Part shown: positions 2,458-17,484 of the stretch, one piece after another
Numbering within the stretch: the first letter of the stretch is position 1
How the letters are laid out: each line of letters begins with the position of its first letter
Assembly: GCA_015065925.1 (NCBI GenBank)
Contig: SVPL01000003.1
Coordinates: forward strand, 18,422-82,421
DNA from: Oscillospiraceae bacterium
GTDB lineage: Bacteria; Bacillota; Clostridia; Oscillospirales; Acutalibacteraceae
DNA length: 64,000 bases
Reading direction: 5' to 3'
Notes under the pieces: generated by a model
Database searches by the model: none
Told to the model about the DNA's origin: nothing
The model's input: the letters and a program-made list of their open reading frames with translations, nothing else
Made by a program: the position numbers and the translations under genes

Positions 2458-2730
2458 CTAATTCAGTATATTCTCAATATCGGCTATTCTGTGATTAACC
2501 GCCTTCATTTGCTCCTCCACAACAGGAACTCTTTTAACCAAACGGTTATGCTCCCTCACCTCTCGAGTGAGCTCGGCAAGCTTGGTATCGGTAATTGCCT
2601 GAGCAACGGCGATTTTTTGCTCAATTCCCTTATTAACTCGACTGTTGGTGATAATCACTCCCATAAGGGTGAGTAATCCCACCGTAACAGAAGCCATAGC
2701 CGAAATCACCGCAGCTGTAATGGTTGTCAT
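2458..2730 (-). CDS. Small membrane protein with an N-terminal TM helix and a C-terminal coiled coil (XhlA-like position upstream of the holin)
   Basis: 90 aa. Hydrophobic N-terminus AAVISAMASVTVGLLTLMGVII, then a heptad-like charged region. Its start shares ATGA with the portal stop. Confidence 0.55.
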   Translation of the reverse strand: MTTITAAVISAMASVTVGLLTLMGVIITNSRVNKGIEQKIAVAQAITDTKLAELTREVREHNRLVKRVPVVEEQMKAVNHRIADIENILN

Positions 2731-4316
2731 ACGGCATCGCCCTTTGCAAAATCGACTGAAAGCTTGTTTAAAAGCTCCTCCTTGCCATAAAAATCCATAA
2801 GCTTAATGGCTAGTCTTGCTTCTTCACGACGCTCGGGAGCAAGCATACCCAAGCTGAATAATTCCTTTGCCAGCTCATTTTGCTGAGCCTTTTGATAGGG
2901 ATTTTGCTTTTGAGGCACTATTTTTATATCGAACACAGGACGAGAGTTTGCGAAAATTTTTCGCCCTAAAGCATCATTGCTTTGATAGGTAATATAATTA
3001 ACATTCCCATCATCCCCCGTAATGCGAAAGCTTCTGGGCTCGGTATAAAACTGCCTTACAAGCTCCAAGATTAAATAACATATATTGGCGTATGCCCTGA
3101 AGGCAGATTTTATCATATCTCTTGACAGCTTATTCCCCGCTTCTTGAAGTGCTAAAATTGCCGACGCCGCTGTTACGCCGTAATTTGTGGAGCCTTGAGA
3201 AAAATCTCTGTTTCCCGAGGTTTCCTTAAGCTCGTTTACCTTAAATGTCAAAAGCTCCAAAGCATTTGAGGAAACATTTCCAACCTCAACCTGCTTTAAG
3301 GTCTGGTCATCAATTCTGCCGGTAGTATGAATAAACGGGCGGGACCAATCGGCAAATTCCTCCTCATTTATTCCCGCCGAATCGCTTATAAAAAAGCGAG
3401 GCATTTCACCCATAAGGGCATTGCGTTCAATGGCGGTGTTAAGCTTATCAATAGATATCTGACATTCCTTCATAGCATCCACATATCCAAAGCCTGCAGG
3501 GGAATTTTCGGTTACAAAAAGGGTATCAAAAACTATTGGGTATTTGCCGTGGTCATAAAAGCCTCTGTTTTGATATTGAGCTTCATTTTCTGAGGCAAAA
3601 AGTAAGGCTTCACCCGAAAACTTGCAGTAGTGAAGAAGGGTTTTGTTACCCACCTTTTTCTTGTAATACCAATCAACAACAAGCGCCTTGCTGTCATCGG
3701 TAATACCATCCTCAAGTCTATACGCCGAAAGCTCACCGAAGCCTTTTTTAATCTGCTCCTCCTTTTCGGGATAGCGAGAAATAAGCTCCTGCCTATCCAC
3801 CGCAGTAGCATAGAATAAATTTGCAGATTGCTCCAGATACTTAATGCCCGGCTCCCAAAAAAGATTAAGAATATCAAGCTGTTTAATATCCACATCGCCA
3901 AGACCGTTTTCAAGCTCATTATTCCAAAAAACGCCGTAAACTCCTGTGCCTGTTTTAAGCTTATACCACCAAGCGTCGGAATAGGTCTGCTCGAAGCCTC
4001 TTTGCTCTAATATCACGGGAAGTATTGCCGAAAAAAGCTTTGCCTGCTCCTCGTCTCCCTCCTCCCTTGCCAAAATATTAGGTTCGGGGAAGGAATCCAT
4101 AGCATCGGCGTGCTTGTTTATTATGGAGTTAAAAAGCCAAGCCGAATTTTGGGATTTTTCCACTCCCCCCACATTGGGACAGCAACGGAGCTTATACCAC
4201 TCCTCGTTTTCCACAATTCTTTCCTCTAAAAAACGCTTTCCCTCCTTATATAAAAGCAGAGTTTTGTAGGCATTTTTTATTTCTTTTAATCCAATGATTT
4301 TTTGTTTGGTTTTCAT
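2727..4316 (-). CDS. Phage portal protein
   Basis: 529 aa, directly downstream of terL (13-nt gap). Size and sequence character fit portal families of Firmicutes siphophages. Confidence 0.8.
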   Translation of the reverse strand: MKTKQKIIGLKEIKNAYKTLLLYKEGKRFLEERIVENEEWYKLRCCPNVGGVEKSQNSAWLFNSIINKHADAMDSFPEPNILAREEGDEEQAKLFSAILPVILEQRGFEQTYSDAWWYKLKTGTGVYGVFWNNELENGLGDVDIKQLDILNLFWEPGIKYLEQSANLFYATAVDRQELISRYPEKEEQIKKGFGELSAYRLEDGITDDSKALVVDWYYKKKVGNKTLLHYCKFSGEALLFASENEAQYQNRGFYDHGKYPIVFDTLFVTENSPAGFGYVDAMKECQISIDKLNTAIERNALMGEMPRFFISDSAGINEEEFADWSRPFIHTTGRIDDQTLKQVEVGNVSSNALELLTFKVNELKETSGNRDFSQGSTNYGVTAASAILALQEAGNKLSRDMIKSAFRAYANICYLILELVRQFYTEPRSFRITGDDGNVNYITYQSNDALGRKIFANSRPVFDIKIVPQKQNPYQKAQQNELAKELFSLGMLAPERREEARLAIKLMDFYGKEELLNKLSVDFAKGDAV

Positions 4317-4329
4317 AATATTTTCCTTT

Positions 4330-5760
4330 CTACATTCGCAAGAATTTAACCTTGTTTTTATTTGAAGATAAGGGCGAAAATATTTCGCCTTCGATTATTT
4401 TGCGAGTTTCTCGCGCCTTAATGGGAATATGCATTAAAACATATCTGCACTCATCATAAATATGGTCCTCGGCTGATGTGTCAATATCCTCTACATTAAG
4501 GGTGTCATAACAAAGAGAGGGTACCGTGCGTATGAAGTTTTTACAGGTGTTAAAAATATAAAGCATAGGCACACCCTCATCATCAAAGGCGAAACGGTAA
4601 TGATACTGCATTTTACCCGAAATTCTGGCGTTATCACCTGCTCGCCAATAAACTCCCGCCTTTTCCATAATCTCGGCAACCGACCTGCCACGCGAACCGT
4701 CAAAAACCGACGGATCGGCAATGCCTATTACACTGCGCCCCTTTATATTTGGATCGTTTTCTTCGATTTTTCGTATTTCCTCTGCAATTCGGGAAGGCTC
4801 AAAGCAAACCCCCTCATTCGGTCTGCCCGTACATCCGTAATATTCCCTTATTCTAAAAAGTCTGCCGTCATTATCGGCAGCATACCACCCAACGCTAAAT
4901 GGCCTTGTGTAGCCAAAATCAAATCCCCTGTAAATCTGCCAATTTTTAGGTATTCTGAAAGGAGCAACCACATGGGTATAACGCATATCATCATAGTGGG
5001 CGGGATCGTTACGCCACTCGGTAAAAACCTGACCGTCAAAGCTATCCCAATCACCGTAAAGCAAAGCCTTTTTTTCGGCTTCGGGAAGCATAGCAAGACT
5101 TGCCAGATATTCGGGATTATTTTTAAGCAGAATTTCATTATCGAATACGGTTGATGGCACAAAAATCCTATGCCTTGTCATCTGCACCTGTTCACCGCTT
5201 GGGGTTACAATACTGTATGTATCAGCTATTGGGGTAAGAGGCGGCGCGGGGGTAATAAACCGTTCCTTAACCCAACCGTGACCTACACCTCCGGGGTTTG
5301 TGGTAGCACGAATATAAACCCTTGTCCCCGCCCCCGACGGACGATTGCGGGAAAACATATAGCTGTACTCCTCCCAAGTAAAGTGAGTCAGCTCATCAAA
5401 TGCTATGAAGTCATACCGTTTACCCTGATAATTAATTCTGTCCTTAATGTACTGCATACTTCCAAAGTGAATTTTCGCCCCCGACGGAAATCTCCAAACG
5501 TGCTCGGTAGAGTTGTAAGTCGCTCCCGGGAAGGCGACCGAATAAATCTGCCGGCTTCTATCAATAAGCTCACTTAACTGCGGCACCGTTTTTCTAAGAA
5601 TTAACGCAGTATAATGTGGAATATGCACCTGACGGAGCGCCTCTACCAAAAGGGCATCACTTTTTCCACCGCCCGCCGCACCGCCGTAAAGCACCTCATA
5701 CTCGCTTCGCGCCAAAAAATCAATCTGCTTTTTTTGAGGCTTCCAAACGGTGTCAGTCAT
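4330..5760 (-). CDS. terL: Phage terminase large subunit
   Basis: Walker A YGGAAGGGKS and Walker B DFIAFDELT are present. The C-terminal half is nuclease-like with acidic motifs. 476 aa. Confidence 0.92.
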   Translation of the reverse strand: MTDTVWKPQKKQIDFLARSEYEVLYGGAAGGGKSDALLVEALRQVHIPHYTALILRKTVPQLSELIDRSRQIYSVAFPGATYNSTEHVWRFPSGAKIHFGSMQYIKDRINYQGKRYDFIAFDELTHFTWEEYSYMFSRNRPSGAGTRVYIRATTNPGGVGHGWVKERFITPAPPLTPIADTYSIVTPSGEQVQMTRHRIFVPSTVFDNEILLKNNPEYLASLAMLPEAEKKALLYGDWDSFDGQVFTEWRNDPAHYDDMRYTHVVAPFRIPKNWQIYRGFDFGYTRPFSVGWYAADNDGRLFRIREYYGCTGRPNEGVCFEPSRIAEEIRKIEENDPNIKGRSVIGIADPSVFDGSRGRSVAEIMEKAGVYWRAGDNARISGKMQYHYRFAFDDEGVPMLYIFNTCKNFIRTVPSLCYDTLNVEDIDTSAEDHIYDECRYVLMHIPIKARETRKIIEGEIFSPLSSNKNKVKFLRM

Positions 5761-6172: not shown

Positions 6173-6532
6173 TTATTTCTTTATGCAAAAGAGTTCATAT
6201 AACCCGTAAAACACAATCACAAATCCAAAAATACTTTTAATAAGCTCGGCTTTTAACTGCCCTACCCAAAAACCCGTAATGATGGTGCCAACCGCGCCAA
6301 AAATCATTACGGGTAAAATTTTTCGCCATTTTATTATCCCTTTTTTAGAATAAATAAAAACCGCCACCGCCGCAGTGGGCAAAAAGAAAATAAGATTTAT
6401 TCCTTGGGCTGCAAGCTGCTCTACTCCCGCAAAAACGCTAAGATAAATTATAAGCACGCTTCCGCCGCCAAGTCCCATTGCACCCGCAATACCCGCTAAA
6501 AATCCCGCCAAAAGAGGTAAAACAAAGCTCAT
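6173..6532 (-). CDS. Half-size TSUP (TauE/SafE) family membrane protein, downstream half of a pair
   Basis: About 4 TM helices with the Gly-rich motif GAMGLGGGSVLI. An ATGA overlap with the upstream half suggests translational coupling. Confidence 0.75.
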   Translation of the reverse strand: MSFVLPLLAGFLAGIAGAMGLGGGSVLIIYLSVFAGVEQLAAQGINLIFFLPTAAVAVFIYSKKGIIKWRKILPVMIFGAVGTIITGFWVGQLKAELIKSIFGFVIVFYGLYELFCIKK

Positions 6533-6891
6533 CCAAAAATCAACCTCCAGCCCGCCCATATCATAAATATGGCAAATATCTTCTTAATAAGTCGGGGAGA
6601 GATTTTTTTCATAATATATGTGCCAACCAATGCCCCCGCAATTCCACCGGGTAAATAAACAAGGCTCTGCTCTAGGGTTACATAGCCTCTGCATAAATAA
6701 TTTACGGCGCTTACCAAGGTTATGGGAAAAATCACCGCAACGGCATTTGCGTGAGCGTCCTTTCGCTCAAACCCCATTTTCATTAAAAGTGGTACACAAG
6801 CAAGTCCGCCACCAGCACCAAAAAATCCATTTATTGCCCCTATCAGCGCCCCTTTGAGGTAATTTTTGCCCTTAGATTTAAATTTTTTCAA
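6529..6891 (-). CDS. Half-size TSUP (TauE/SafE) family membrane protein, upstream half of a pair
   Basis: Motif GFFGAGGGLACVPLL. I moved the start to TTG at 6891 (AAGAGG RBS 7 nt upstream). The longer ORF would overlap the metA start. Confidence 0.7.
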   Translation of the reverse strand: MKKFKSKGKNYLKGALIGAINGFFGAGGGLACVPLLMKMGFERKDAHANAVAVIFPITLVSAVNYLCRGYVTLEQSLVYLPGGIAGALVGTYIMKKISPRLIKKIFAIFMIWAGWRLIFG

Positions 6892-7000
6892 AAAAACACC
6901 TCTTTTTTTCAACTTAGGTATAGTATTTACAGAAAAAAAGGTGTATAATAGATAAAATATAATTTTTTTATGATTTATTAGTAAAGCGAGGACGATTACA

Positions 7001-7927
7001 ATGCCTATAAAAATAAGCAACGACCTTCCCGCAAGGGCAATACTTGAAAACGAGCATATTTTTGTTATGACCGAAACCAGAGCCCTTCAGCAGGATATTC
7101 GCCCACTTAAAATTTTAATATTAAACCTTATGCCCAATAAAATTGAAACCGAAACTCAGCTACTTCGCTGTCTTTCAAACACCCCCCTTCAAATAGAGGT
7201 CACCCTTATGCAAACCTCTACCCACAAGGCAAAAAACACCTCTCCCGAGCATCTGCTTAACTTCTACACCACCTTTGAGGAGATAAAAAATCAGCAGTTT
7301 GACGGACTTATAATCACAGGCGCCCCCGTAGAGCAAATGCCCTATGAGGAGGTTACCTATTGGAATGAGCTTTGTGAGATTATGGAGTGGTCAAAGGAGA
7401 ATGTTTTTTCCACCCTGCACATTTGTTGGGGCGCTCAGGCGGGGCTTTATTACCACTACGGAATAGAAAAGGAGCTTTTACCCCAAAAGCTTTCGGGTAT
7501 TTTCAAGGTGGATATTCTAACCGAAAAATCCCGACTTTTCCACGGTATGGACGATTATCTTTATGTGCCTCAATCCCGCTATACCGCCTCTAACCGCGAC
7601 CAGATTGCAAATCACCCCGACCTTAGAATTATGTCGGAGTCCGACGAGGTAGGAGTTCACCTTGTTGGCGATAATCACGGCAGACAGTTTTTTATAATGG
7701 GCCACCACGAATACGACCGCGAAACCCTTGCCAACGAATATAACCGCGATGTTGCACGAGGTATTAATCCCAAGGTACCCCTGCACTATTTCCCCGATGA
7801 CAACCCCGCAAATCCACCCTATGCCAGATGGCACGTTTACGCAAGCACCCTTTTCACAAACTGGCTTAACTATTTTGTTTACCAAACCACACCTTACGAG
7901 CTTAAGGATTTAAAGGGAAATAAGTAA
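7001..7927 (+). CDS. metA: Homoserine O-acyltransferase (MetA family)
   Basis: MPIKI..DLPA N-terminus, LKILILNLMP, and the active-site context HICWGAQAG. 308 aa. Confidence 0.92.
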   Translation: MPIKISNDLPARAILENEHIFVMTETRALQQDIRPLKILILNLMPNKIETETQLLRCLSNTPLQIEVTLMQTSTHKAKNTSPEHLLNFYTTFEEIKNQQFDGLIITGAPVEQMPYEEVTYWNELCEIMEWSKENVFSTLHICWGAQAGLYYHYGIEKELLPQKLSGIFKVDILTEKSRLFHGMDDYLYVPQSRYTASNRDQIANHPDLRIMSESDEVGVHLVGDNHGRQFFIMGHHEYDRETLANEYNRDVARGINPKVPLHYFPDDNPANPPYARWHVYASTLFTNWLNYFVYQTTPYELKDLKGNK

Positions 7928-9224: not shown

Positions 9225-9253
9225 TTGACAAAACAATTTTTTTGAATTATAAT
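9225..9253 (+). promoter_or_regulatory. Sigma-A type promoter of the giant surface-protein gene
   Basis: TTGACA (9225-9230), 17-nt spacer, TATAAT (9248-9253). A GGAGG RBS lies before the ATG at 9300. Confidence 0.6.
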
Positions 9254-9299: not shown

Positions 9300-12200
9300 A
9301 TGAAAACCTTATTTAAACACCAAAAAAGCACATTTAAGCGCATTTTCAAAAAGCACAAGCTTTTACTGCGGAGCATAGCGGTAACCCTTGTGCTGACTTT
9401 ACTTTTCACCTCTTTGCCTATGGACGGAATTATCGCCCTTGCCGAGCAGGCGATTGAAGATAGCAAGCTAATAACCGTTGTTGAGGAATTAGAGGAGTAC
9501 CGCACTGAATTTTCCAAAACCTACCTAAAATCGGACGGCACTCTGGAAGCTGTTGTTTCCTCCAACCCCATTCATTTTAATGAGGACGGCGAATGGGTTG
9601 AAATAGATTCCACACTTGAAACCGCCGAAAATGAAAAGGGCGAGGAAATTTTACAAAACAAAAAAGGTTCCTTTAATGTTGAGCTTCCTGCCGAGCTTCA
9701 AAACAGCTCAGAAATCGCTATTGAAAAGGGCAAAAACAAAATATCCATTAAGCTTTTGGAAACCAAAAAATCCAAAGCCAAAAAGAATAACGAGAAAAAA
9801 GAAAAATCCGAAAAACTAACCAAAGCTCAGCGCAAGCGTATGACCGCGGGCGAGCTTTTTGAAGCAGATAACAACCAATCCTCCGCAGTTGAGTACACCT
9901 CCGCATATAACGAAACCAACATCCGCTATGATGTTACCCCAAACGAGGTTAAAGAAAGCATTGTATTACAAAAAGCCCCCAACAAAAAGGCTACATACAG
10001 CTATGAAATCACCGCCGACGGTCTTACCGCCATTTTAAATGAGGATAACAGTATAGACTTTTTTGAAGGCTCAAAAACGGATGGCGCAGAGCCTGTTTTT
10101 TCTATGCCCGCCCCACATATGTTCGACTCAAATGACGAGTATTCGTACGACATTGTAACCACCCTTGAAAACAAAAAGGGTAAATACATTTTAACCTACA
10201 AGCCAAGCTACGAATGGCTAAAATCCAAAGACCGTGCATATCCCGTAACCATCGACCCCACCGTAACAATCAACAGCGGTATTCAGGATTCCTACACCTT
10301 TTCGGGCGAGGGCTACGGTGATTCCTACACAGGCTATGAGCAGCAGCTAAAGGTTGGCACCACCGCCTGGATTGCCCCTAATGATTATTGGCAGACCTAT
10401 TTAAAATTCACCGACCTACCCCAAATCCCCTATGAAGATTACCGCATAGACTCAGCCTATTTAATGCTAACCCCTAAAGCCACAACGGGTAATTGGCAGG
10501 AAATGGAGCTTGGCGTTTATGAGCTTACCGAGGATTGGAAAAACCACCAGACGGGCAAGGTTGCAGAACGCATAACCTTTAACAACGCTCCCGAGGATGT
10601 GGGCTACTCTACCGCAACGGCAACAGTATCCCGCGGCGGCGCAGATAACGGTGTCGGCGTAGGCTTTGAAATCGCCCACCTTATGGAAAAATGGTACGAA
10701 AACCCCGAAGAAAATTTCGGTATAAAGCTTGCCGCCCATTTGGAGGCCAGTCAGTGGAACGATAACCTTGTTTTCCATTCTTCCCGCTCTACCACAGGCA
10801 CCGCTCCATATCTTTCACTTACCTATACCGAGTTCGTACCTGTAACCGGTATTGAGATAATAGGCAAACCCGAAAACAATAAAATTTTTATTGATGAAAC
10901 TTTAAGTTTAACAATAACAACAACTCCCGAAAACGCTAGTGATAAAGAAGATATTATATCCAATGTTGTTTGGAGTTCCGATAACCCCGATATTGCTGAA
11001 ATTGATTCTGTAACCGGTGACGTTATAACAAAAGAGCTTGGAACCGCAACAATTACCGCTACTTCCGGTGAATACACTGATTCCTTTACACTAACCGTTA
11101 GGGAACATATACCTGATGAAATCTATTTGATGATTTCTGATAATTATCGCTTATTTGAACATGAGCAATATTACATTAGTGTAGCTACATTTTATCAAAA
11201 CAGCGGTGTATATGCAGAAGTAGAATATCATTCTAATAATCCTGACGTTGCTTCTGTTTCTGAAAACGGAATAATAACAGCAAATTCTGTTGGTACTGCA
11301 GTTATAACGGCTTTTGCAAAAGAAGCTCCGGAAGTTAAAGCAACTGCAACAATTACCGTTGTGCCTATACAGTCTGCAGAAATTGTAAATTTACCCGAAA
11401 ACAATTCTTTAGATGTTTATAAAAGTCACCGTTTAGACCTAGAAATAACTGCTGATAATTATAGTGCCATAGAGGGTGACCCTGCATTCATTGGTAGATA
11501 TGCAGAATTTTTTGATTGGAGTTCAAGTAATCCTGATGTTGCAACAATAGATGCCGAAGGCGATATTCAGCCATGCTCAGTAGGAACTACAACAATTTCT
11601 GTGAGCCGACCTAATGGCGGTGAAGTGCTTGACAGTTTCACTCTTACGGTGTATTATATAGATGCAACGGGTATAGAAATAACAAGCTATCCTGAGGATA
11701 AAAAACTAGAGTTAAACAAGTCAGTATATTTGTACGCTGCTCTTTTGCCCGATAACGCCTCTCAACCCAATTATGTGTGGAATTATCTGTATTGGGAATC
11801 AAGCAATACAGATGTTATAACAGTTGATGGGTACGGCATGATAACCGCAGTAGGCTATGGCACTGCAAATATAACGGTTGAGTATGAAGGCTTAACCGAT
11901 TCAATAGAGATTACTGTACCATATTACCCCACAACAGAAGTAGGTTTTATTTTTAGCGATTCTCCACACTCGTTATATATTGACGATACAGTAAGTTTTT
12001 GGGGTATAGTTGCGCCATCAAACGCAACAGATCAAAGAACAAGATGTACTTCATCAAATCCTAATGTAGTTAGTGTTACCGAAATTTCTGATACAACATC
12101 TCCTAATAAAACAGTTAGCTATCAACTTAAAGCCGTATCAGTAGGTACAGCAACTATTCGCCTGGAAGCATATAACGACCCTACCGTTTATGATGAAATT

Positions 12201-14450
12201 ACTGTTACTGTAGAATGGCGAGAAGCTAATTACGAGTATAATTTGACCGAAGACTATATTTTTCTAGGCACTTCTCGGCAGATACTTACGCCTGGGGGAG
12301 CAGAATATATCGTTTCAATAGAAGACCCCACCATTCTGTCGACTGATGGCAATGGAAAAATCACTGCGCTAAAAACAGGAACAACAAAAATTACTATTGG
12401 AACTTACGGCGTTACAGGCGCAAAACCGCACGAATGTACCATTACAGTGCTTAGCTATACGGATTTCAATTTTTTCAACATCCCTATGGTAACTTATGGT
12501 AACTCCTATGCTATGACTGAAAACAAAAATGTAGAATTGCGCACTGATGATACTGATAAAGTTGAAATAAAAGACAATAAATGGATAAAAACCATAGATA
12601 TAGGTTGGGCGTCGGTGGATGTTTATTATCACGGTGTTTGCATACACACAATTGATTTTTATATAATAGAATCCATTGCTATTGTGAATAAACCCGAAAA
12701 CAACACCATAAAAGTAGGAAAACCCTATGAAAGCCTAGGCGCAAAAGAAATGCCAACTGATGTTTTGGCAGATGTTGAATGGTATTCAGGTGACGAAAGT
12801 ATAGCAGAAGTATATTATGATGTAAAAAGCGGTCGGGTTATTTTAACCGGCAAAAGTCAAGGCTCGGTTTGGATAGGCGCAGAGTCATCTGACCCCGCTA
12901 ACCCCGCCAGTGACGGTTTTTGGTTATATGTTGATTTTGATGTAACTAGTTTTTATATTGATTATTATCCCGATAATTCCTCTTCAGAAGATAATATTCT
13001 CTATATAAATGAGAGTGGCGTTTTTCAAGCAGATATATATCCTAATCCTAATGTATATTACAACAACATAGAATGGTATGTAAAAGAAGGAGATAAAAAC
13101 TGCATTAGATTCAAATCTATTATAGAAAACGGAGTTATAAAAAAAGATACTATAAAAATATATGCAGCGAAGGCAGGAAAAGTGGAAATCAGCGCCATAA
13201 TTGATAATTATATTGAGGCTGAGATAAGCGTTTCTTTAGAAATAAGGAAACCATCAAGCATAATTACTGTTCCTGCAAATCATATAATTAAAATTGGAAC
13301 TAAATACACATTTACTGCCGATATTATGCCTGAATACGCCATAGGAACATGGAGTTCAAGTAATACTAATGTAGGCACTATTGACGATAATGGGGTTTTC
13401 GAAGCATTATCAAACGGGGAAACAGAGATAACTCTTTTATATGAAGTTGGTGGTAAAACTTATTCCAATACCGTTAAGATTTGCGTATCGGATGTTAAAA
13501 TAACTAATGTTCCCGGTAACAGAGTTTTATTTGTAGACGGTAAACGAGCTTTAAATGCAAAGGTTTATCTTAGTAATACAACAAGCGAAGATGTTGTTTG
13601 GGCTACAAGTAATTCTAGCATTGCTACTGTTGATTCTAATGGAGAAATAATAGGCAAAAGCGCTGGAGAAGTAACAATAACAGCCAAATATAAAAATGAT
13701 ACTTCTCAAAAGGCTTGGGTTACTATAACGGTTAAAAAAACTAAGAGTTATTACTATTATTTAGATGAAGAAGGAAATGGTGGCAATCATAAACGACTTA
13801 TTAGAGCTAATGTTGAAAAAGATGTAATTGCAAATTCGTATTATGGTGGAAAAAATTCTTATATCGAAACCATCGAACTTACAAGCGAAGAATCGTTTAA
13901 AAATTCGTGGAATAGTTTCGGAAAAGATGGATATGATGTAGGTTATGTAATTATAGATTGTCATGGTAATGAAGATGGATTTGGGCATAAAAACAGTAAA
14001 GTTGATTTTTATATAAGCTACACTTTAATTTCAAAATTGGAATACAAAGAGATGCAAGGGCTTATAGTGCTTGTTTGTAGTGCTGGTAATTTAGAAACAT
14101 TAGAAAGAGAAGATGAAAATCTTTCTAGTGCGTTTGCAAAAAAACTTGCAGGAATACCAGTAATTTCAAGTGATGCTACCGTGTGGTGTAAATACGATAG
14201 CGATAAAGATGAGTATGAAAATTTAAGTACTTTTGATAACCTTAAAGGTGAAAAACCAATAGTGTCCAATAAATCGACAGTAGGTTGGTTGATTTATTTG
14301 TACAGGCAAAATAAACTTACGATTTACAAACCTAATCAAAAAGAAACCAAGCGGGGCGGCATAAAATATACAACTATGCTTTGTATGTCGGATTTACTAA
14401 CCGAAGTGACTAGTTACCCAAACAGAGAAATCTATACTGTGGTTGATTGA
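9300..14450 (+). CDS. Giant secreted protein: signal peptide, DNRLRE-like domain, about eleven Big_2 (bacterial Ig-like) repeats, and a C-terminal His/Cys domain of unknown function
   Basis: 1716 aa. The N-terminal signal has h-region SIAVTLVLTLLFTSL and cleavage site ALA-EQ. SSNPDVA..G.a.ITA motifs recur through the repeat region. No LPXTG, SLH or other wall-anchor motif was seen. Confidence 0.85.
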   Translation: MKTLFKHQKSTFKRIFKKHKLLLRSIAVTLVLTLLFTSLPMDGIIALAEQAIEDSKLITVVEELEEYRTEFSKTYLKSDGTLEAVVSSNPIHFNEDGEWVEIDSTLETAENEKGEEILQNKKGSFNVELPAELQNSSEIAIEKGKNKISIKLLETKKSKAKKNNEKKEKSEKLTKAQRKRMTAGELFEADNNQSSAVEYTSAYNETNIRYDVTPNEVKESIVLQKAPNKKATYSYEITADGLTAILNEDNSIDFFEGSKTDGAEPVFSMPAPHMFDSNDEYSYDIVTTLENKKGKYILTYKPSYEWLKSKDRAYPVTIDPTVTINSGIQDSYTFSGEGYGDSYTGYEQQLKVGTTAWIAPNDYWQTYLKFTDLPQIPYEDYRIDSAYLMLTPKATTGNWQEMELGVYELTEDWKNHQTGKVAERITFNNAPEDVGYSTATATVSRGGADNGVGVGFEIAHLMEKWYENPEENFGIKLAAHLEASQWNDNLVFHSSRSTTGTAPYLSLTYTEFVPVTGIEIIGKPENNKIFIDETLSLTITTTPENASDKEDIISNVVWSSDNPDIAEIDSVTGDVITKELGTATITATSGEYTDSFTLTVREHIPDEIYLMISDNYRLFEHEQYYISVATFYQNSGVYAEVEYHSNNPDVASVSENGIITANSVGTAVITAFAKEAPEVKATATITVVPIQSAEIVNLPENNSLDVYKSHRLDLEITADNYSAIEGDPAFIGRYAEFFDWSSSNPDVATIDAEGDIQPCSVGTTTISVSRPNGGEVLDSFTLTVYYIDATGIEITSYPEDKKLELNKSVYLYAALLPDNASQPNYVWNYLYWESSNTDVITVDGYGMITAVGYGTANITVEYEGLTDSIEITVPYYPTTEVGFIFSDSPHSLYIDDTVSFWGIVAPSNATDQRTRCTSSNPNVVSVTEISDTTSPNKTVSYQLKAVSVGTATIRLEAYNDPTVYDEITVTVEWREANYEYNLTEDYIFLGTSRQILTPGGAEYIVSIEDPTILSTDGNGKITALKTGTTKITIGTYGVTGAKPHECTITVLSYTDFNFFNIPMVTYGNSYAMTENKNVELRTDDTDKVEIKDNKWIKTIDIGWASVDVYYHGVCIHTIDFYIIESIAIVNKPENNTIKVGKPYESLGAKEMPTDVLADVEWYSGDESIAEVYYDVKSGRVILTGKSQGSVWIGAESSDPANPASDGFWLYVDFDVTSFYIDYYPDNSSSEDNILYINESGVFQADIYPNPNVYYNNIEWYVKEGDKNCIRFKSIIENGVIKKDTIKIYAAKAGKVEISAIIDNYIEAEISVSLEIRKPSSIITVPANHIIKIGTKYTFTADIMPEYAIGTWSSSNTNVGTIDDNGVFEALSNGETEITLLYEVGGKTYSNTVKICVSDVKITNVPGNRVLFVDGKRALNAKVYLSNTTSEDVVWATSNSSIATVDSNGEIIGKSAGEVTITAKYKNDTSQKAWVTITVKKTKSYYYYLDEEGNGGNHKRLIRANVEKDVIANSYYGGKNSYIETIELTSEESFKNSWNSFGKDGYDVGYVIIDCHGNEDGFGHKNSKVDFYISYTLISKLEYKEMQGLIVLVCSAGNLETLEREDENLSSAFAKKLAGIPVISSDATVWCKYDSDKDEYENLSTFDNLKGEKPIVSNKSTVGWLIYLYRQNKLTIYKPNQKETKRGGIKYTTMLCMSDLLTEVTSYPNREIYTVVD
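10248..10835 (+). other. DNRLRE-like domain segment of the giant protein
   Basis: TIDPTVT..DSYTF...YLKFTDLPQIP...IDSAYLML...NAPE...FGIKL matches my recollection of the DNRLRE domain pattern. Confidence 0.5.
10836..13737 (+). other. Array of about eleven Big_2-type Ig-like repeats (protein-level repeats)
   Basis: A roughly 85-90 aa periodicity. Each unit starts with G/N-x-PEN/PED and contains W-S-S-x-N-P-D-V/I-A...G-T-A-x-I-T. Confidence 0.75.
13738..14447 (+). other. C-terminal domain of about 235 aa with a putative His/Cys dyad (clan CD / C80-CPD / CHAT-like pattern)
   Basis: YVIIDCHGNEDGF (His codon 13962-13964) and GLIVLVCSAGN (Cys codon 14076-14078). Each motif follows a hydrophobic strand, and they are 38 aa apart. 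Confidence 0.4.
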
Positions 14451-14461
14451 AGGGAGTTATT

Positions 14462-15328
14462 ATGAAAATCAAAAAAAGTTTACGCTTAATTGTAATTTTA
14501 GTTTTAATACTTCTTATTTGTTTTACTGCTTGTAGTAGTGAAATTGACATTATCAATATAAATAATTCCTCTTTTGAATCCGCTTCTACACTTTCTGAAA
14601 ATGAAAATAATACATCGTCTTTACAAATCACAACTTCTTCACAAATTGAGGTTTCTTCAAAAGCTTCTAAACCTACAACATCAACATCCTCAAATATTTC
14701 AAGTTCAACATCTTCAAAAACGCTAAAAATTTTAAAGCCTAAAACAATAGAGGAAGCCCTTTTGCCTTTTTACGAAGATTACGATAAAATAGAAAGGTTT
14801 CCTGCAAAAAAAGTCCCTAATATGTCAAAAACAGAATTTTTGAAGTTTGTAGAAAAAATTTATGAAATCGATTTGCCTGATTTTACAGTTTTTGAACCAA
14901 ATGGAAGTGTGTTATTCAGGTATACACTTTTAGACAAGTATACATATGATGATTTAAGCATCGGCACTATAATTAAAAACCTTGTGACTTATTATACAAA
15001 ATCCGAAATAGACGCTGTTTTAAAACAGGCTCAAGAAAATGAAAAACTTGGATGGGGATTCCAAGGAGATAGAGAAGATTTTTTAAATGAAAATAAGCAA
15101 GAAATGGAAAAAATAGTAGGAGATTTATCGAATAAAGAGTATTATCAATTTGATTTGTGGTCGCCATCCCGAGCACATACTAATATTCAACGACGTAGAT
15201 TTATTTTTATTATGAAAGAAACTGATAATAGATATATAGTTATTTTTAGTGGAGAAACAACTAATTATGATTTATATAACGGAACGTTAGAAGTCCAACC
15301 TAATGGTTCGGCAAAAGCTATCAGTTAA
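14462..15328 (+). CDS. Lipoprotein with a Ser/Thr-rich linker and a C-terminal domain of about 190 aa and unknown function
   Basis: Lipobox LICFTAC-S. AGGGAG RBS. The ATG lies 12 nt after the giant-gene stop. The linker is low-complexity and Ser/Thr-rich (TSSQIEVSSKASKPTTSTSSNISSSTSS). Confidence 0.75.
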   Translation: MKIKKSLRLIVILVLILLICFTACSSEIDIININNSSFESASTLSENENNTSSLQITTSSQIEVSSKASKPTTSTSSNISSSTSSKTLKILKPKTIEEALLPFYEDYDKIERFPAKKVPNMSKTEFLKFVEKIYEIDLPDFTVFEPNGSVLFRYTLLDKYTYDDLSIGTIIKNLVTYYTKSEIDAVLKQAQENEKLGWGFQGDREDFLNENKQEMEKIVGDLSNKEYYQFDLWSPSRAHTNIQRRRFIFIMKETDNRYIVIFSGETTNYDLYNGTLEVQPNGSAKAIS

Positions 15329-15357
15329 TCTAATGTACCAATCAAACAAAAACAATA

Positions 15358-15638
15358 AAAAAACAGGGGACGGTTAGCGTGAAACCAAAAAAGCAGTAAA
15401 ATAGCAAAAAGGCACACTAAACCAAGCCGGAATATTCCCCCGATTGTGAAAAGACAGGGGACGGTTCTCTGTCTTGTTTCTAAAGAACAATTTGAAGAAT
15501 TTAATGCAAAAAACACAATCGAAACCTGCTTGGATTTAGAAGAGAAAAAGTTTGTTAAAGGATTGACCGGCATCGGCAAGGGATTGGTTGAAAAATGGCT
15601 CAAAATATAGCAATGACATAGAACCGTCCCCTGTCTTC
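15358..15638 (+). repeat. Long copy of a hairpin-ended intergenic repeat, carrying a nested 18-bp perfect inverted repeat and a start-less ORF remnant
   Basis: 15358-15405 matches 16228-16275 with 2 mismatches in 48 nt. AAGACAGGGGACGGTTCT at 15451-15468 is perfectly inverted at 15621-15638. Confidence 0.8.
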
Positions 15639-15676
15639 TACCTAAATATTTAGAGCAATTTTAAGGGGGCGCACAA

Positions 15677-16213
15677 TTGAAAAAAAGGCTTATTATTGTT
15701 ATATGTGTACTGTTGTCTGTTATACTTGTTACAGGGATAGTGTATACTATATTTATAAATATAAATGAGAAAAAAGTTATTTCAGAATTTGAAAGATTGG
15801 CAAAGGTTGAACTTCCTAATTCCGTAGAAATATTGGAAGGTGCCGAAATCTGTAAATATAAAAACGAAAGTTTAGGCGTTCATATTAATATGAAGCTTTT
15901 AAAAAAAGATTATATTAATATAAAAAAACAGCTTGATTCAAACGGTATTAAATGGAAAAAAGAAATAACAAATGAAATGATAAAAAATGTACAAAAGCTC
16001 CGAATAAAAGAATTAGGTTGGAATGGCAATGATTATGATGCTTATTATAATATTACCGTTACAAACCGTTACGGAACTAATACTTTTGCAAGATTAATTA
16101 TTTTCTTTTCATCCGATGGGGGCGAAACATACACATTGTATGCAACATTATCCGAGCCGCCACCGGGCGAAGAACGATGGGACGCATCCGAAGTTAATGA
16201 TTATGGATATTAA
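15677..16213 (+). CDS. Membrane-anchored (N-terminal TM) extracytoplasmic protein of unknown function
   Basis: TTG start with an AAGGGGG RBS 7 nt upstream. TM helix LIIVICVLLSVILVTGIVYTIFI. 178 aa. It shows weak collinear motif similarity to the preceding lipoprotein. Confidence 0.65.
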   Translation: MKKRLIIVICVLLSVILVTGIVYTIFININEKKVISEFERLAKVELPNSVEILEGAEICKYKNESLGVHINMKLLKKDYINIKKQLDSNGIKWKKEITNEMIKNVQKLRIKELGWNGNDYDAYYNITVTNRYGTNTFARLIIFFSSDGGETYTLYATLSEPPPGEERWDASEVNDYGY

Positions 16214-16227
16214 AAAATCAAAAGGCT

Positions 16228-16300
16228 AAAAGACAGGGGACGGTTAGCGTGAAACCAAAAGAGCAGTAAAATAGCCAAGACATAGAACCATCCCTATCTT
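16228..16300 (+). repeat. Short copy of the same hairpin-ended repeat
   Basis: The AAAAGACAGGGGACGGTTAGCGTGAAACC...AATAGC block is followed directly by the inverted arm GACATAGAACCATCCCTATCTT. Confidence 0.8.
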
Positions 16301-16301
16301 A

Positions 16302-16356
16302 AAAAAATCCTTCTTAGGCTGTGGGGGTTTAGCACCCAACCTAAGAAGGATTTTAA
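16302..16356. terminator. Long hairpin terminator (bidirectional) between the 15677 gene and the XRE gene
   Basis: AAATCCTTCTTAGG (16305-16318) pairs with CCTAAGAAGGATTT (16340-16353), flanked by A and T runs. Confidence 0.75.
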
Positions 16357-16357
16357 T

Positions 16358-16567
16358 TTATTCCTTAACATATTTTATTATGTCCTCAACATCACAGTTT
16401 AAAATTCGGCAAAAATCGTCTATTTTCATTGTGCTTATGCCATTACCCTTTTTCATACGATCTATGGTAGCACTGCTGATGTTATATTTATTAATAAGCG
16501 TGTATGTTGTAATGTTTTTTGCCTTTAATGTTGCCCAAAAGGGTTCGTAGCTTATCAACAATACCAC
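16358..16567 (-). CDS. XRE/Cro-type helix-turn-helix transcriptional regulator (69 aa)
   Basis: The HTH pattern NITTYTLINKYNISSATIDRMKKG is typical of small Cro/C1-like regulators. Confidence 0.8.
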   Translation of the reverse strand: MVLLISYEPFWATLKAKNITTYTLINKYNISSATIDRMKKGNGISTMKIDDFCRILNCDVEDIIKYVKE

Positions 16568-16604
16568 CTCCTATATAAAATAAGCATATATCCAAAATAT
16601 ATAC

Positions 16605-16633
16605 TTGACAATAGTCATAATTGTGACTATTAT
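16605..16633 (+). promoter_or_regulatory. Promoter of the Cys-rich small gene, with a 20-bp near-perfect palindrome (candidate XRE operator) filling the spacer
   Basis: TTGACA (16605-16610), 17-nt spacer, TATTAT (16628-16633). The palindrome ATAGTCATAATTGTGACTAT (16611-16630) has one non-complementary base pair (9 of 10 pairs complementary). Confidence 0.6.
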
Positions 16634-16654
16634 ATATACTGAGGAGGCGTTGTT

Positions 16655-16855
16655 ATGAATTGTAATAAAAAGGTAACAGTAACTTGTTGGTATTGCAAAT
16701 TTCATAATCTGTATTATGAATTGATTGAAGATTTCAATTATGAGGGCTACTGCGTTTTGAAAAATATTTCAAAATCAGGATTAGATAAAATTTGCGAAGA
16801 ATTTCAAATAAAGCCTTGTATTCATACCTCAAAATATTATCCCAGTAAAAAATAA
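16655..16855 (+). CDS. Small Cys-rich protein of unknown function (66 aa, 7 Cys)
   Basis: GAGGAGG RBS 7 nt upstream of the ATG. A CWYC pair plus further spaced Cys and His residues suggest metal binding. Divergent from the XRE gene. Confidence 0.5.
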   Translation: MNCNKKVTVTCWYCKFHNLYYELIEDFNYEGYCVLKNISKSGLDKICEEFQIKPCIHTSKYYPSKK

Positions 16856-16886
16856 GACCAAAAGGCAAAAAAATCACCCTAAACTA

Positions 16887-16915
16887 TTGATTTTTTAAAA
16901 TCAATGTGGTATAAT
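16887..16915 (+). promoter_or_regulatory. Sigma-A promoter of the rimP-nusA-infB operon (extended -10)
   Basis: TTGATT (16887-16892), 17-nt spacer, TGgTATAAT (16907-16915). The palindrome ATTGATTTTT/TAAAATCAAT (16885-16904) overlaps the -35 element. Confidence 0.65.
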
Positions 16916-16938
16916 ACCAATGTAAGATGTGTTAGAAA

Positions 16939-16970
16939 GGAGAGTGGGGCAACCCGCTCTCTACTTTTTG
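16939..16970 (+). promoter_or_regulatory. Leader hairpin plus U-tract (terminator-like attenuator) upstream of rimP
   Basis: GAGAGTGGG, a GCAA loop, then CCCGCTCTC, followed by ACTTTTT. It lies about 20 nt downstream of the predicted transcription start. Confidence 0.5.
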
Positions 16971-17013
16971 TCAGGACACTATCGGCAAAAATAAGAATTT
17001 TTTAAATTGAAAG

Positions 17014-17484
17014 GTGTTGTATCTATTGGCAGGTAATCATACCGCAAAGCAGGTGGCTGAACTTGTTAAGCCCTATGTGGAGCAGCTTGGTTTAACCCTT
17101 TGGGATGTTCGCTTTGTTAAGGAGGGCGCGTCCTGGTACCTTCGCATTTTTATTGATAAAGAGGGCGGCGTTACCATTGATGACTGTACCGATGTTTCCC
17201 ACGCGGTTGACCCCGTTTTGGATGAGGCAGATCCCATTAGCGTCTCCTATTATTTAGAGGTTTGCTCCCCCGGCTTAAACCGCGAACTCAAAGAACCCGA
17301 GCACTTTAAAGCCTTTATCGGCAGTGAAATTGCACTCACCCTTTATAAGGCGGAAAACGGCTCAAAATCGGTTCAAGGCATACTTGAAGCCTTTAATGAA
17401 AATCTTGTTTTAACGGTTGGGGAGGAGAAAAAAGAATATCCCCTCTCAGCAGTTGCTAAGGCAACACTTTGTGATTTGGATTAA
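17014..17484 (+). CDS. rimP: Ribosome maturation factor RimP
   Basis: LWDVRFVKEG..WYLRIFIDK..GVTIDDC and LEVCSPGLNRELK motifs. The start is uncertain (TTG at 17014 or at 17023). Confidence 0.9.
   Translation: MLYLLAGNHTAKQVAELVKPYVEQLGLTLWDVRFVKEGASWYLRIFIDKEGGVTIDDCTDVSHAVDPVLDEADPISVSYYLEVCSPGLNRELKEPEHFKAFIGSEIALTLYKAENGSKSVQGILEAFNENLVLTVGEEKKEYPLSAVAKATLCDLD

Follow-up and report, generated by a model that had tools for sequence, protein, structure and literature searches.

The 64,000-nucleotide stretch of DNA analysed here (the window), from contig SVPL01000003.1 of an Oscillospiraceae bacterium, harbors a gene for a giant protein of 1716 amino acids. Downstream on the same strand are genes for a lipoprotein and for a 178-amino-acid protein with an N-terminal transmembrane (TM) anchor (Table 1). 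The C-terminal 237 residues of the giant protein belong to a family that has a conserved His and Cys, is predicted to adopt a clan CD peptidase fold, and is found at the ends of unrelated large proteins. The domain is likely to be the toxin tip, open to exchange, of a polymorphic toxin that this Clostridia-type bacterium exports by Sec and for which it has membrane-tethered immunity.

Table 1. Features of the putative toxin locus, with positions in the window
Feature	Positions	Strand	Remarks
Giant gene, putative polymorphic toxin	9300-14450	+	open reading frame (ORF) of 1716 amino acids
Putative promoter of the giant gene, consensus sigma-70 type	9225-9253	+	TTGACA 9225-9230, 17-nt spacer, TATAAT 9248-9253; read from sequence
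C-terminal domain, predicted toxin, clan CD fold	13737-14447	+	residues 1480-1716, 237 amino acids; homologs, model and fold search
Predicted catalytic His1555 codon CAT	13962-13964	+	C-terminal end of strand beta3, YVIIDC-H-G
Predicted catalytic Cys1593 codon TGT	14076-14078	+	C-terminal end of strand beta4, LIVLV-C-SAG
Near-invariant Asp1625 codon	14172-14174	+	family motif (A/S)SDG(T)V after beta5
Likely cognate immunity gene, lipoprotein	14462-15328	+	lipobox LICFTAC followed by S, Ser/Thr-rich linker, ~190-amino-acid C-terminal domain
Intergenic remnant between the two immunity-like genes	15363-15635		inverted repeat GACAGGGGACGGTTC
Second immunity-like gene, 178 amino acids, N-terminal TM anchor	15677-16213	+	match to a hidden Markov model (HMM) and homology to locus L016

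The ATG of the giant gene at 9300 is preceded by the ribosome-binding site (RBS) TAGGAGG, and the gene ends with a TGA stop at 14448-14450. The encoded protein has an N-terminal hydrophobic signal/anchor segment (residues ~1-48) and, in scans with the NCBIfam and Pfam libraries, a DNRLRE domain (residues 337-508, E 3e-15). Big_2/immunoglobulin (Ig)-like repeats span ~970 residues (~511-1479). Big_2 matches in Pfam cover nine stretches or more (E 3e-59), and the final Ig-type Pfam match stops at residue 1471. Neither an LPXTG motif nor another wall-anchor domain was found in the sequence or in the Pfam and NCBIfam scans, in agreement with the original prediction, made from the DNA sequence, that the protein has no recognizable wall anchor. 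Judging from its consensus, the element upstream of the gene may be its promoter. It matches the sigma-70 consensus perfectly, is located 47 nt 5' of the ATG, and has a strength that is unusual for a gene so large.

The original prediction placed the C-terminal domain at 13738-14447. The domain is real, but this start is one base out of frame and should be 13737. The motifs noted in it are present, namely YYYYL (residues 1484-1488), YVIIDCHGNEDGF (1549-1561) and GLIVLVCSAGN (1587-1597), with H1555 and C1593 separated by 38 residues. The domain is found once, with no second copy in the window. The observation that this tail of ~235 amino acids matches no named family was also borne out. Pfam provided no match (best E 0.14, spurious), NCBIfam and PADLOC returned nothing, and sequence and profile searches of the PDB, including a search with a core-only profile, revealed nothing significant. 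Matches of the toxin profile to 'Cake'/PQQ beta-propellers were rejected as spurious, being driven by the ApVlASDGTVy motif.

Conservation and predicted fold of the C-terminal domain

Homologs were collected by running phmmer exhaustively against 1.84 billion cluster representatives with a cut-off of E<=1e-3. The search returned 88 representatives, 15 of them at E<=1e-10. The family count (~88) refers to clusters at 50% identity, and five of the 88 matches are repeat-protein artefacts, leaving 83 true homologs. In nearly all of these the match ends 40 residues or fewer from the C-terminus. The family was found only by the exhaustive search, because word-indexed searches were nearly empty, with nothing detected with the single domain and four proteins only with a 34-sequence profile. 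A tblastn search of plasmids with the domain gave no match.

Conservation was counted in a MAFFT alignment of 84 toxin domains. The Cys at the C1593 column is invariant (84/84 domains), a His is found at the H1555 column in 79/83 homologs, and an Asp at the D1625 column in 82/84 domains. Also near-invariant are W1537, N1538, G1596, N1607, G1662-W1663 and Y1666. The family consensus is vvIntH(G/A)xP ... LiLlGCNAGHxD ... NgAPVlASDGTV ... GW.vY. The window copy departs from it with CSAGN for GCNAGH and SSDATV for ASDGTV, and keeps the H, C, D and N. The original prediction had singled out conservation of H1555 and C1593 as the property to be checked. With an invariant Cys and a His kept in most of the aligned homologs, the His/Cys pattern is not due to chance. 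Asp1625 probably serves either as a third catalytic residue or in the S1 pocket.

An AlphaFold2 model of the domain, based on a 34-sequence alignment, has a predicted local distance difference test score (pLDDT) of 86.6 and a predicted template modelling score (pTM) of 0.87. In model numbering, the elements are ordered beta1 (2-8), alpha1, beta2 (43-47), alpha2, beta3 (67-74) and His76, and then beta4 (108-112), Cys114, two helices, beta5, a beta-rich subdomain and a terminal helix. The strand at 67-74 leads to H76-G77 and the strand at 108-112 to C114, with the His before the Cys as in clan CD. From the positions of the secondary structure elements, the His and Cys appear to lie at the C-terminal ends of neighbouring strands, which is the caspase-hemoglobinase arrangement.

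The top matches of the model in a Foldseek search of the PDB all belong to clan CD, with probability ~1.0, E from 1e-4 to 3e-2 and TM-scores of 0.3-0.53. The best match is SAVED-CHAT (8tl0, E 1e-4). Among the others are a C11 protease that Bacteroides thetaiotaomicron secretes (6n9j, E 3e-4), metacaspases of plants and yeast, caspase-11, -3, -1, -6, -7 and -8 and CED-3 (E 1e-3 to 3e-2), and the cysteine protease domain (CPD)-like type VI secretion system (T6SS) effector Tce1 (9qpe_G, TM-score 0.51 on the target). In BFVD, which holds predicted viral structures, the high-probability matches are annotated as Caspase or Clostripain. No solved C80 CPD chain is among the 50 Foldseek matches listed. 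These results support a clan CD fold for residues 1480-1716, as suggested by the original prediction from the His and Cys motifs, and not a non-peptidase fold. The specific resemblance to the C80 and CHAT families that it had proposed was not reproduced by profiles. Neither Peptidase_C80 nor CHAT (PF12770) matched the window domain or any of 34 aligned family members at E<=1, and the likeness to SAVED-CHAT is structural only. Likewise, Pfam and PDB sequence and profile searches revealed no sequence-level relationship to CHAT, C11, metacaspases or caspases, and identity in the structural alignments with these proteins is 7-15%.

Delivery scaffolds, downstream genes and mosaic structure of the locus

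Full-length homologs are of two main kinds, RHS proteins and Big_2 repeat proteins. In the RHS type, the toxin domain follows DUF6531, RHS repeats and a YD-shell, and starts 2-4 residues past the DPxG(L/T/N)D junction of the RHS core. The DPxG junction is the position occupied by the C-terminal toxin in RHS polymorphic toxins. In a census of the junctions in the 83 representatives, the domain stands after the RHS DPxG junction in at least 27 and after Big_2 repeats in at least 11. A 'TIGKxDI...THYSAY' pre-toxin region precedes it in ~9 representatives and a Cys-rich region in ~5, one representative is a standalone toxin domain with its own signal peptide, and the remainder of the census consists of N-terminal fragments. 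One C-terminal domain is carried on unrelated N-terminal regions, as is typical of polymorphic toxins. The architecture of the window protein, with signal segment, DNRLRE domain, Big_2 repeats and C-terminal domain, was regarded as undescribed in the original prediction. It recurs as a whole in the metagenomic proteins P0002 and P0003 and in the giant protein of locus L016.

Following the last Big_2 repeat, the linker K-T-K-S-Y does not vary among the five nearest sequences of the Big_2 type, although their domains are only ~34% identical. It is confined to one subclade, and other junctions read KNNVSY, TETYSY or GTDCY. The Cys-rich region mentioned above is Zn-ribbon-like ('CNICGKNYDNPEECPH') in P0020, P0024, P0026, P0030 and P0063, and constitutes a third delivery or pre-toxin context.

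A profile search of genome contigs and metagenome contigs with alignment A2 found no related locus. A profile with the RHS-type alignment A3 recovered 13 genome loci, with hosts that include Pseudoflavonifractor, Lachnospiraceae, Butyrivibrio, Solobacterium, Christensenellaceae and Fusibacter. In 12 of the 13 loci, the gene directly 3' of the toxin gene encodes a protein of 139-176 amino acids. With a single exception, these 12 proteins carry a lipobox or a TM helix at the N-terminus, and they are mutually homologous (blastp E down to 1e-36). Ten downstream proteins had no Pfam match whatsoever at E<=0.01, and they are not Imm36 (DUF600, BH3703-like).

The window contains a member of this downstream family. 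An HMM of the 12 proteins matches the 178-amino-acid protein over its full length (E 6e-6), the next best of 242 window ORFs scoring 0.097. Homologs of this protein exist at 87-94% identity. Loci L016 and L017, from the metagenome-assembled genome of an uncultured member of the Clostridia, bear a relative of it, and the gene directly 3' of the giant toxin gene of L016 encodes a protein 87% identical (91% at the nucleotide level). The window gene is probably an orphan immunity gene retained against a sister toxin of the L016 type.

The lipoprotein gene is the immediate neighbour of the toxin gene. It starts 11 nt past the toxin stop, with the RBS AAGGGAG at 14451-14457 right after that stop; the mechanical ORF begins at a TTG at 14447. 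The C-terminal domains closest to that of the window are found in loci L021 (P0001, 43% identical) and L020 (P0002, 39% identical). In both, the gene directly 3' of the toxin gene encodes a lipoprotein with a Ser/Thr linker that is homologous to the window lipoprotein, with E values of 3e-5 to the window protein, 1e-7 to the L016 lipoprotein lipo249 and 3e-12 between L020 and L021. The lipoprotein of L014/L016 is 40-44% identical to that of the window (E 1e-47 to 1e-52), and the lipoprotein class is distantly related to the immunity-like family. It seems likely from these relationships that the lipoprotein is the cognate immunity protein. Across 17 loci, the similarity matrices of toxins and downstream proteins correlate (Spearman 0.55, Mantel 0/5000). 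The conserved downstream family, the subclade-specific lipoproteins and the matrix correlation point to an immunity-type gene that is specific for the toxin type, another trait of polymorphic toxins.

The gene order in L016 is an RHS gene, three small genes, a gene for a 1669-amino-acid Big_2 giant, imm178 and a gene for a 249-amino-acid lipoprotein, followed by an IS200-like transposase fragment, an orphan toxin module with a Big_2 remnant and a gene for a 170-amino-acid immunity homolog. The order is therefore toxin-imm178-lipoprotein in L016 and toxin-lipoprotein-imm178 in the window. The window and L016 giants are 80% identical over residues 5-892 (82% at the nucleotide level over 9343-11920), and then the similarity collapses; their C-terminal domains are of the same family but only 32% identical. 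An orphan cassette of Big_2 remnant, toxin and immunity gene is present in L016/L017, whereas the window has a probable orphan immunity gene and no orphan toxin. Such conservation of the N-terminus with divergence of the C-terminus among relatives, together with orphan cassettes, is what polymorphic toxins exhibit. The GC content is 40-51% over 9300-10800, drops to ~30-33% over 12900-17100, and is 42-47% in the flanks. This drop and the mosaicism relative to L016 bear out in part the claim that the segment was acquired horizontally.

The breakpoint relative to L016 is inside the Big_2 array (~residue 892, nt 11920), not at the boundary of the toxin domain. Because the breakpoint is at ~11920 and the GC drop begins only at ~12900, the exchanged module includes several Ig repeats, which suggests that the Big_2 repeats themselves supply the homology for cassette swapping. 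The intergenic remnant probably marks a rearrangement junction and looks like an element of the repetitive extragenic palindrome or miniature inverted-repeat type. GACAGGGGACGGTTC is located at 15453-15467 and recurs in reverse complement at 15621-15635; part of it is present a third time at 15363-15375. Window positions 15197-15375 are 77% identical to positions 11356-11537 of L016, where an IS200/RAYT-like transposase fragment (p41, 'RGINKQQIF..EDYEKFL') lies just 3' of that stretch. The inverted repeat brackets a 54-amino-acid ORF (15446-15610).

L016 and L020 are toxin 'islands'. Positions 1-4726 of L016, directly upstream of the Big_2 toxin, encode an RHS toxin of >2191 amino acids and three small 3' genes, one of which, p196, has a Cys/His pattern recalling a papain-like domain. 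Positions 10075-14042 of L020 comprise an orphan Big_2 fragment and, after it, a row of five small genes. Several of these encode an N-terminal TM segment and two are paralogous (E 1e-14); the row is probably an array of the poly-immunity type.

A prophage or prophage remnant occupies 2727-5760 on the minus strand, a few kb before the toxin locus, with genes for a P22-like portal protein (2727-4316, E 2e-28) and a phage-type terminase large subunit (4330-5760, Terminase_6N E 6e-15). Genes for TauE, metA and a LacI-like regulator stand between the prophage genes and the toxin gene. The TauE/SafE sulfite-exporter homolog is split at 6173-7020 (minus strand) into two overlapping ORFs, with 6529-7020 corresponding to profile positions 77-236 and 6173-6559 to positions 2-109, pointing to a pseudogene with a frameshift or to an error in the sequence. 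Where the low-GC island ends, a minus-strand ORF (16358-16567) encodes a 69-amino-acid XRE-type helix-turn-helix-like protein ('...TYTLINKYNISSATIDRMKKGNGISTMKIDDFCRILNC...') that may be a mobile-element regulator; just past it, rimP-nusA-infB resume at 17014.

Predicted role of the domain and alternative explanations

Based on these results, a role for the locus in antagonism between bacteria can be outlined. Together, the DNRLRE domain and some twelve Ig-like domains of the Big_2 type would form a stalk that presents the swappable tip of ~235 amino acids beyond the wall of the producer. The tip would be a clan CD cysteine peptidase, or possibly a transpeptidase, with the H1555/C1593 dyad at the ends of adjacent strands. 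Catalysis can be argued because the Cys is invariant and the His 95% conserved. The target of the toxin would be an extracytoplasmic protein or peptide in the envelope of neighbouring Gram-positive cells, and immunity proteins tethered on the outside of its own membrane would shield the producer. The lipoprotein would inhibit the cognate toxin, and the 178-amino-acid TM protein would cover a sister toxin variant. Action in the cell envelope, and not in the cytoplasm, is suggested because the partner proteins are predicted to be on the outside of the membrane, and the immunity-like genes argue for bacterial rather than eukaryotic targets. A more specific proposal is offered tentatively and is open to considerable doubt. 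It holds that a caspase-fold toxin borne on an Ig stalk attacks an envelope protein or wall peptide of Gram-positive bacteria and is blocked by a hitherto unrecognised family of membrane-tethered lipoprotein inhibitors, in analogy to contact-dependent inhibition.

Several points weigh against assignment of the domain as a toxin tip with dedicated immunity. TM-scores in the Foldseek search are modest (0.38-0.41 on the query, reaching 0.53 on the target), and the window domain diverges from its family, with CSAGN in place of GCNAGH and A replacing G in SDG. Family members are known from sequence and prediction only. The immunity role of the downstream proteins is read solely from synteny, and the Mantel correlation, to which linkage contributes, may partly reflect shared descent of linked genes. 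The AlphaFold2 model of the 178-amino-acid protein (12-sequence alignment, pLDDT 41.8) is unusable. Moreover, the immunity gene typical of the family is not adjacent to the toxin gene in the window, and the cognate assignment of the lipoprotein comes from three loci.

The original prediction had described the domain as a possible self-processing or effector peptidase with motifs resembling those of C80 CPDs, and had named autoprocessing and its dependence on inositol hexakisphosphate (InsP6) as properties to be checked. C80 CPDs are internal domains, activated by InsP6, that cleave in cis to free effector domains. By analogy, the window domain would cleave its own polypeptide, for example at the KKTKS linker, perhaps with allosteric regulation of the kind found in MARTX and large clostridial toxins. 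The clan CD fold, the CPD-like Tce1 among the structural matches and the linker kept throughout the subclade of the window are compatible with such a role, and most caspase-like domains of polymorphic toxins are releasing peptidases (PMC3482391). However, releasing peptidases stand upstream of a separate toxin domain (PMC3482391), whereas the window domain is the last in the protein, with nothing beyond it to release. It occupies the toxin slot past DPxG in RHS proteins, and the standalone and orphan-cassette copies have no substrate in cis. Dedicated, co-varying immunity-like genes would be unexpected for a housekeeping autoprocessing module, no member tested matches Peptidase_C80, InsP6 is a eukaryotic cofactor and at odds with an immunity-bearing system, and the KTKS linker is limited to one subclade. 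A mainly self-processing role is thus unlikely and the InsP6-dependent version of it lacks support, while the effector option fits; a dual role, with self-release in addition to toxicity, is possible.

The same toxin slot and partner genes bear on whether the protein is a degradative or host-directed secreted or surface protease of the gingipain, clostripain or C11 type, displayed on an Ig-like stalk for nutrition, degradation of mucin or host proteins, or maturation of surface proteins. The secreted C11 protease among the structural matches, the origin of relatives in gut and rumen Clostridia, and the combination of Sec export with Ig-like repeats, which is common to many surface enzymes, would be in keeping with such a function. 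Peptidase_C25 in Pfam also matched two family members weakly (E 0.008), and in a PDB profile search PorU covered the His..Cys stretch with E 0.36, which is suggestive only. A degradative enzyme would not be expected in the RHS toxin slot or beside conserved, co-varying immunity-like partners, and the orphan toxin/immunity cassettes and the conserved N-terminus with a divergent C-terminus are hallmarks of polymorphic toxins; this explanation is improbable. A non-peptidase or non-catalytic domain, such as an alpha/beta-hydrolase-like or Rossmann-like scaffold or an inactive binding module, is very improbable. The 'HG ... C-S-A-G' pattern superficially resembles the HG and GxSxG of alpha/beta-hydrolases, Foldseek returned low-probability matches to RecA/DnaB-like folds, and some caspase-like repeats in toxins are inactive (PMC3482391). 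Yet all matches at a probability of ~0.9 or above are clan CD peptidases, the helicase/RecA-type matches have a probability <0.7 and root-mean-square deviations >10 Å, and the conservation of the Cys and His speaks for catalysis. The alpha/beta-hydrolase reading, with HG and a nucleophile elbow, was rejected because the fold matches clan CD and no conserved His, as needed for the triad, follows the Cys.

Relation to known toxins and significance

A toxin tip of clan CD has a precedent in Tox-Caspase, predicted in 2012 (Zhang, Aravind et al. 2012, PMC3482391), which further qualifies the claim of an undescribed architecture. Tox-Caspase has a conserved H and C, occurs with RHS proteins and export by the type II secretion system or Sec, is listed for Firmicutes and is partnered by Imm36; its C-terminal copies were predicted computationally and are probably toxins (PMC3482391). 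The present family shares the caspase-like alpha/beta fold, the H and C, and the C-terminal-most position in secreted multidomain toxins that include RHS proteins. It differs in its partner, a lipoprotein/TM family without a Pfam match in place of the BH3703-like Imm36, for which no membrane anchor is noted, and in its Big_2 stalk, since Ig repeats are not among the repeat scaffolds listed in PMC3482391. The present family may have been part of the 2012 set. According to PMC3482391, lipobox-anchored immunity is exceptional and confined to Imm65, and cell-surface L,D-peptidase toxins have secreted or TM immunity proteins, whose location matches the site where the toxin acts.

The effectors Tce1 and Tce2 of Pseudomonas aeruginosa (PDB 9qpe) offer a second comparison. 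PMC13323088 describes them as H3-T6SS effectors loaded on Hcp3, with a CPD-like His-Cys pair, and reports that toxicity of Tce2 in yeast is lost in the C115S mutant. Like the window domain, they are small clan CD/CPD-like His-Cys effector domains, and Tce1 is a structural match to the model. Unlike it, they are cargo of a Gram-negative T6SS and were shown to be toxic to yeast, not bacteria. No immunity protein is described in the passages of PMC13323088 consulted, and sequence similarity to the window domain was undetected.

Other relatives are defined by fold or by delivery. In C80 CPDs, the spacing from His to Cys is 45-49 residues. The window domain resembles these CPDs in its clan CD fold, in the strand-His-Gly followed by strand-Cys, and in being part of a giant secreted toxin, and is unlike them in its terminal position, immunity partners, spacing of 38 and lack of a Peptidase_C80 match. 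CHAT/SAVED-CHAT, C11 and metacaspase/caspase proteins are the best structural matches and share the strand-His/strand-Cys arrangement, but the window domain is smaller than these, includes a beta-rich C-terminal subdomain of its own (model residues 142-216) and is found in another biological context. WapA/WapI and TelC/TipC are examples of Gram-positive contact-dependent or secreted systems whose immunity is extracellular. Their large toxins leave the cell by Sec or the type VII secretion system, vary in the C-terminal domain and are encoded beside an immunity gene. TelC attacks lipid II outside the membrane, and TipC is accordingly anchored on the outer side. The window locus has the same plan of an exported large toxin, variable C-terminal domain and adjacent immunity-type gene; the toxin chemistry of those systems, a tRNase and a lipid II phosphatase, is different. 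To our knowledge, no clan CD peptidase toxin with an external immunity protein has been characterised.

The general kind of system, a clan CD toxin tip of a polymorphic toxin, is known, and the present family is distinct within it. The toxin sequence family, its use of an Ig-repeat stalk and the lipoprotein/TM immunity family are genuinely uncatalogued. Tox-Caspase-type domains have hardly been characterised, least of all in Gram-positive anaerobes from gut and rumen, and the locus provides a compact, testable predicted toxin/immunity pair. Terminal clan CD domains on giant proteins should not be read as autoprocessing by analogy to C80. If the proposed role is correct, the immunity proteins would be a new class of proteinaceous inhibitor of clan CD peptidases, Clostridia would be open to harm by cleavage of an extracellular protein or peptide, and Big_2 Ig-repeat giants, which are usually annotated as adhesins, could serve as toxin-delivery stalks.

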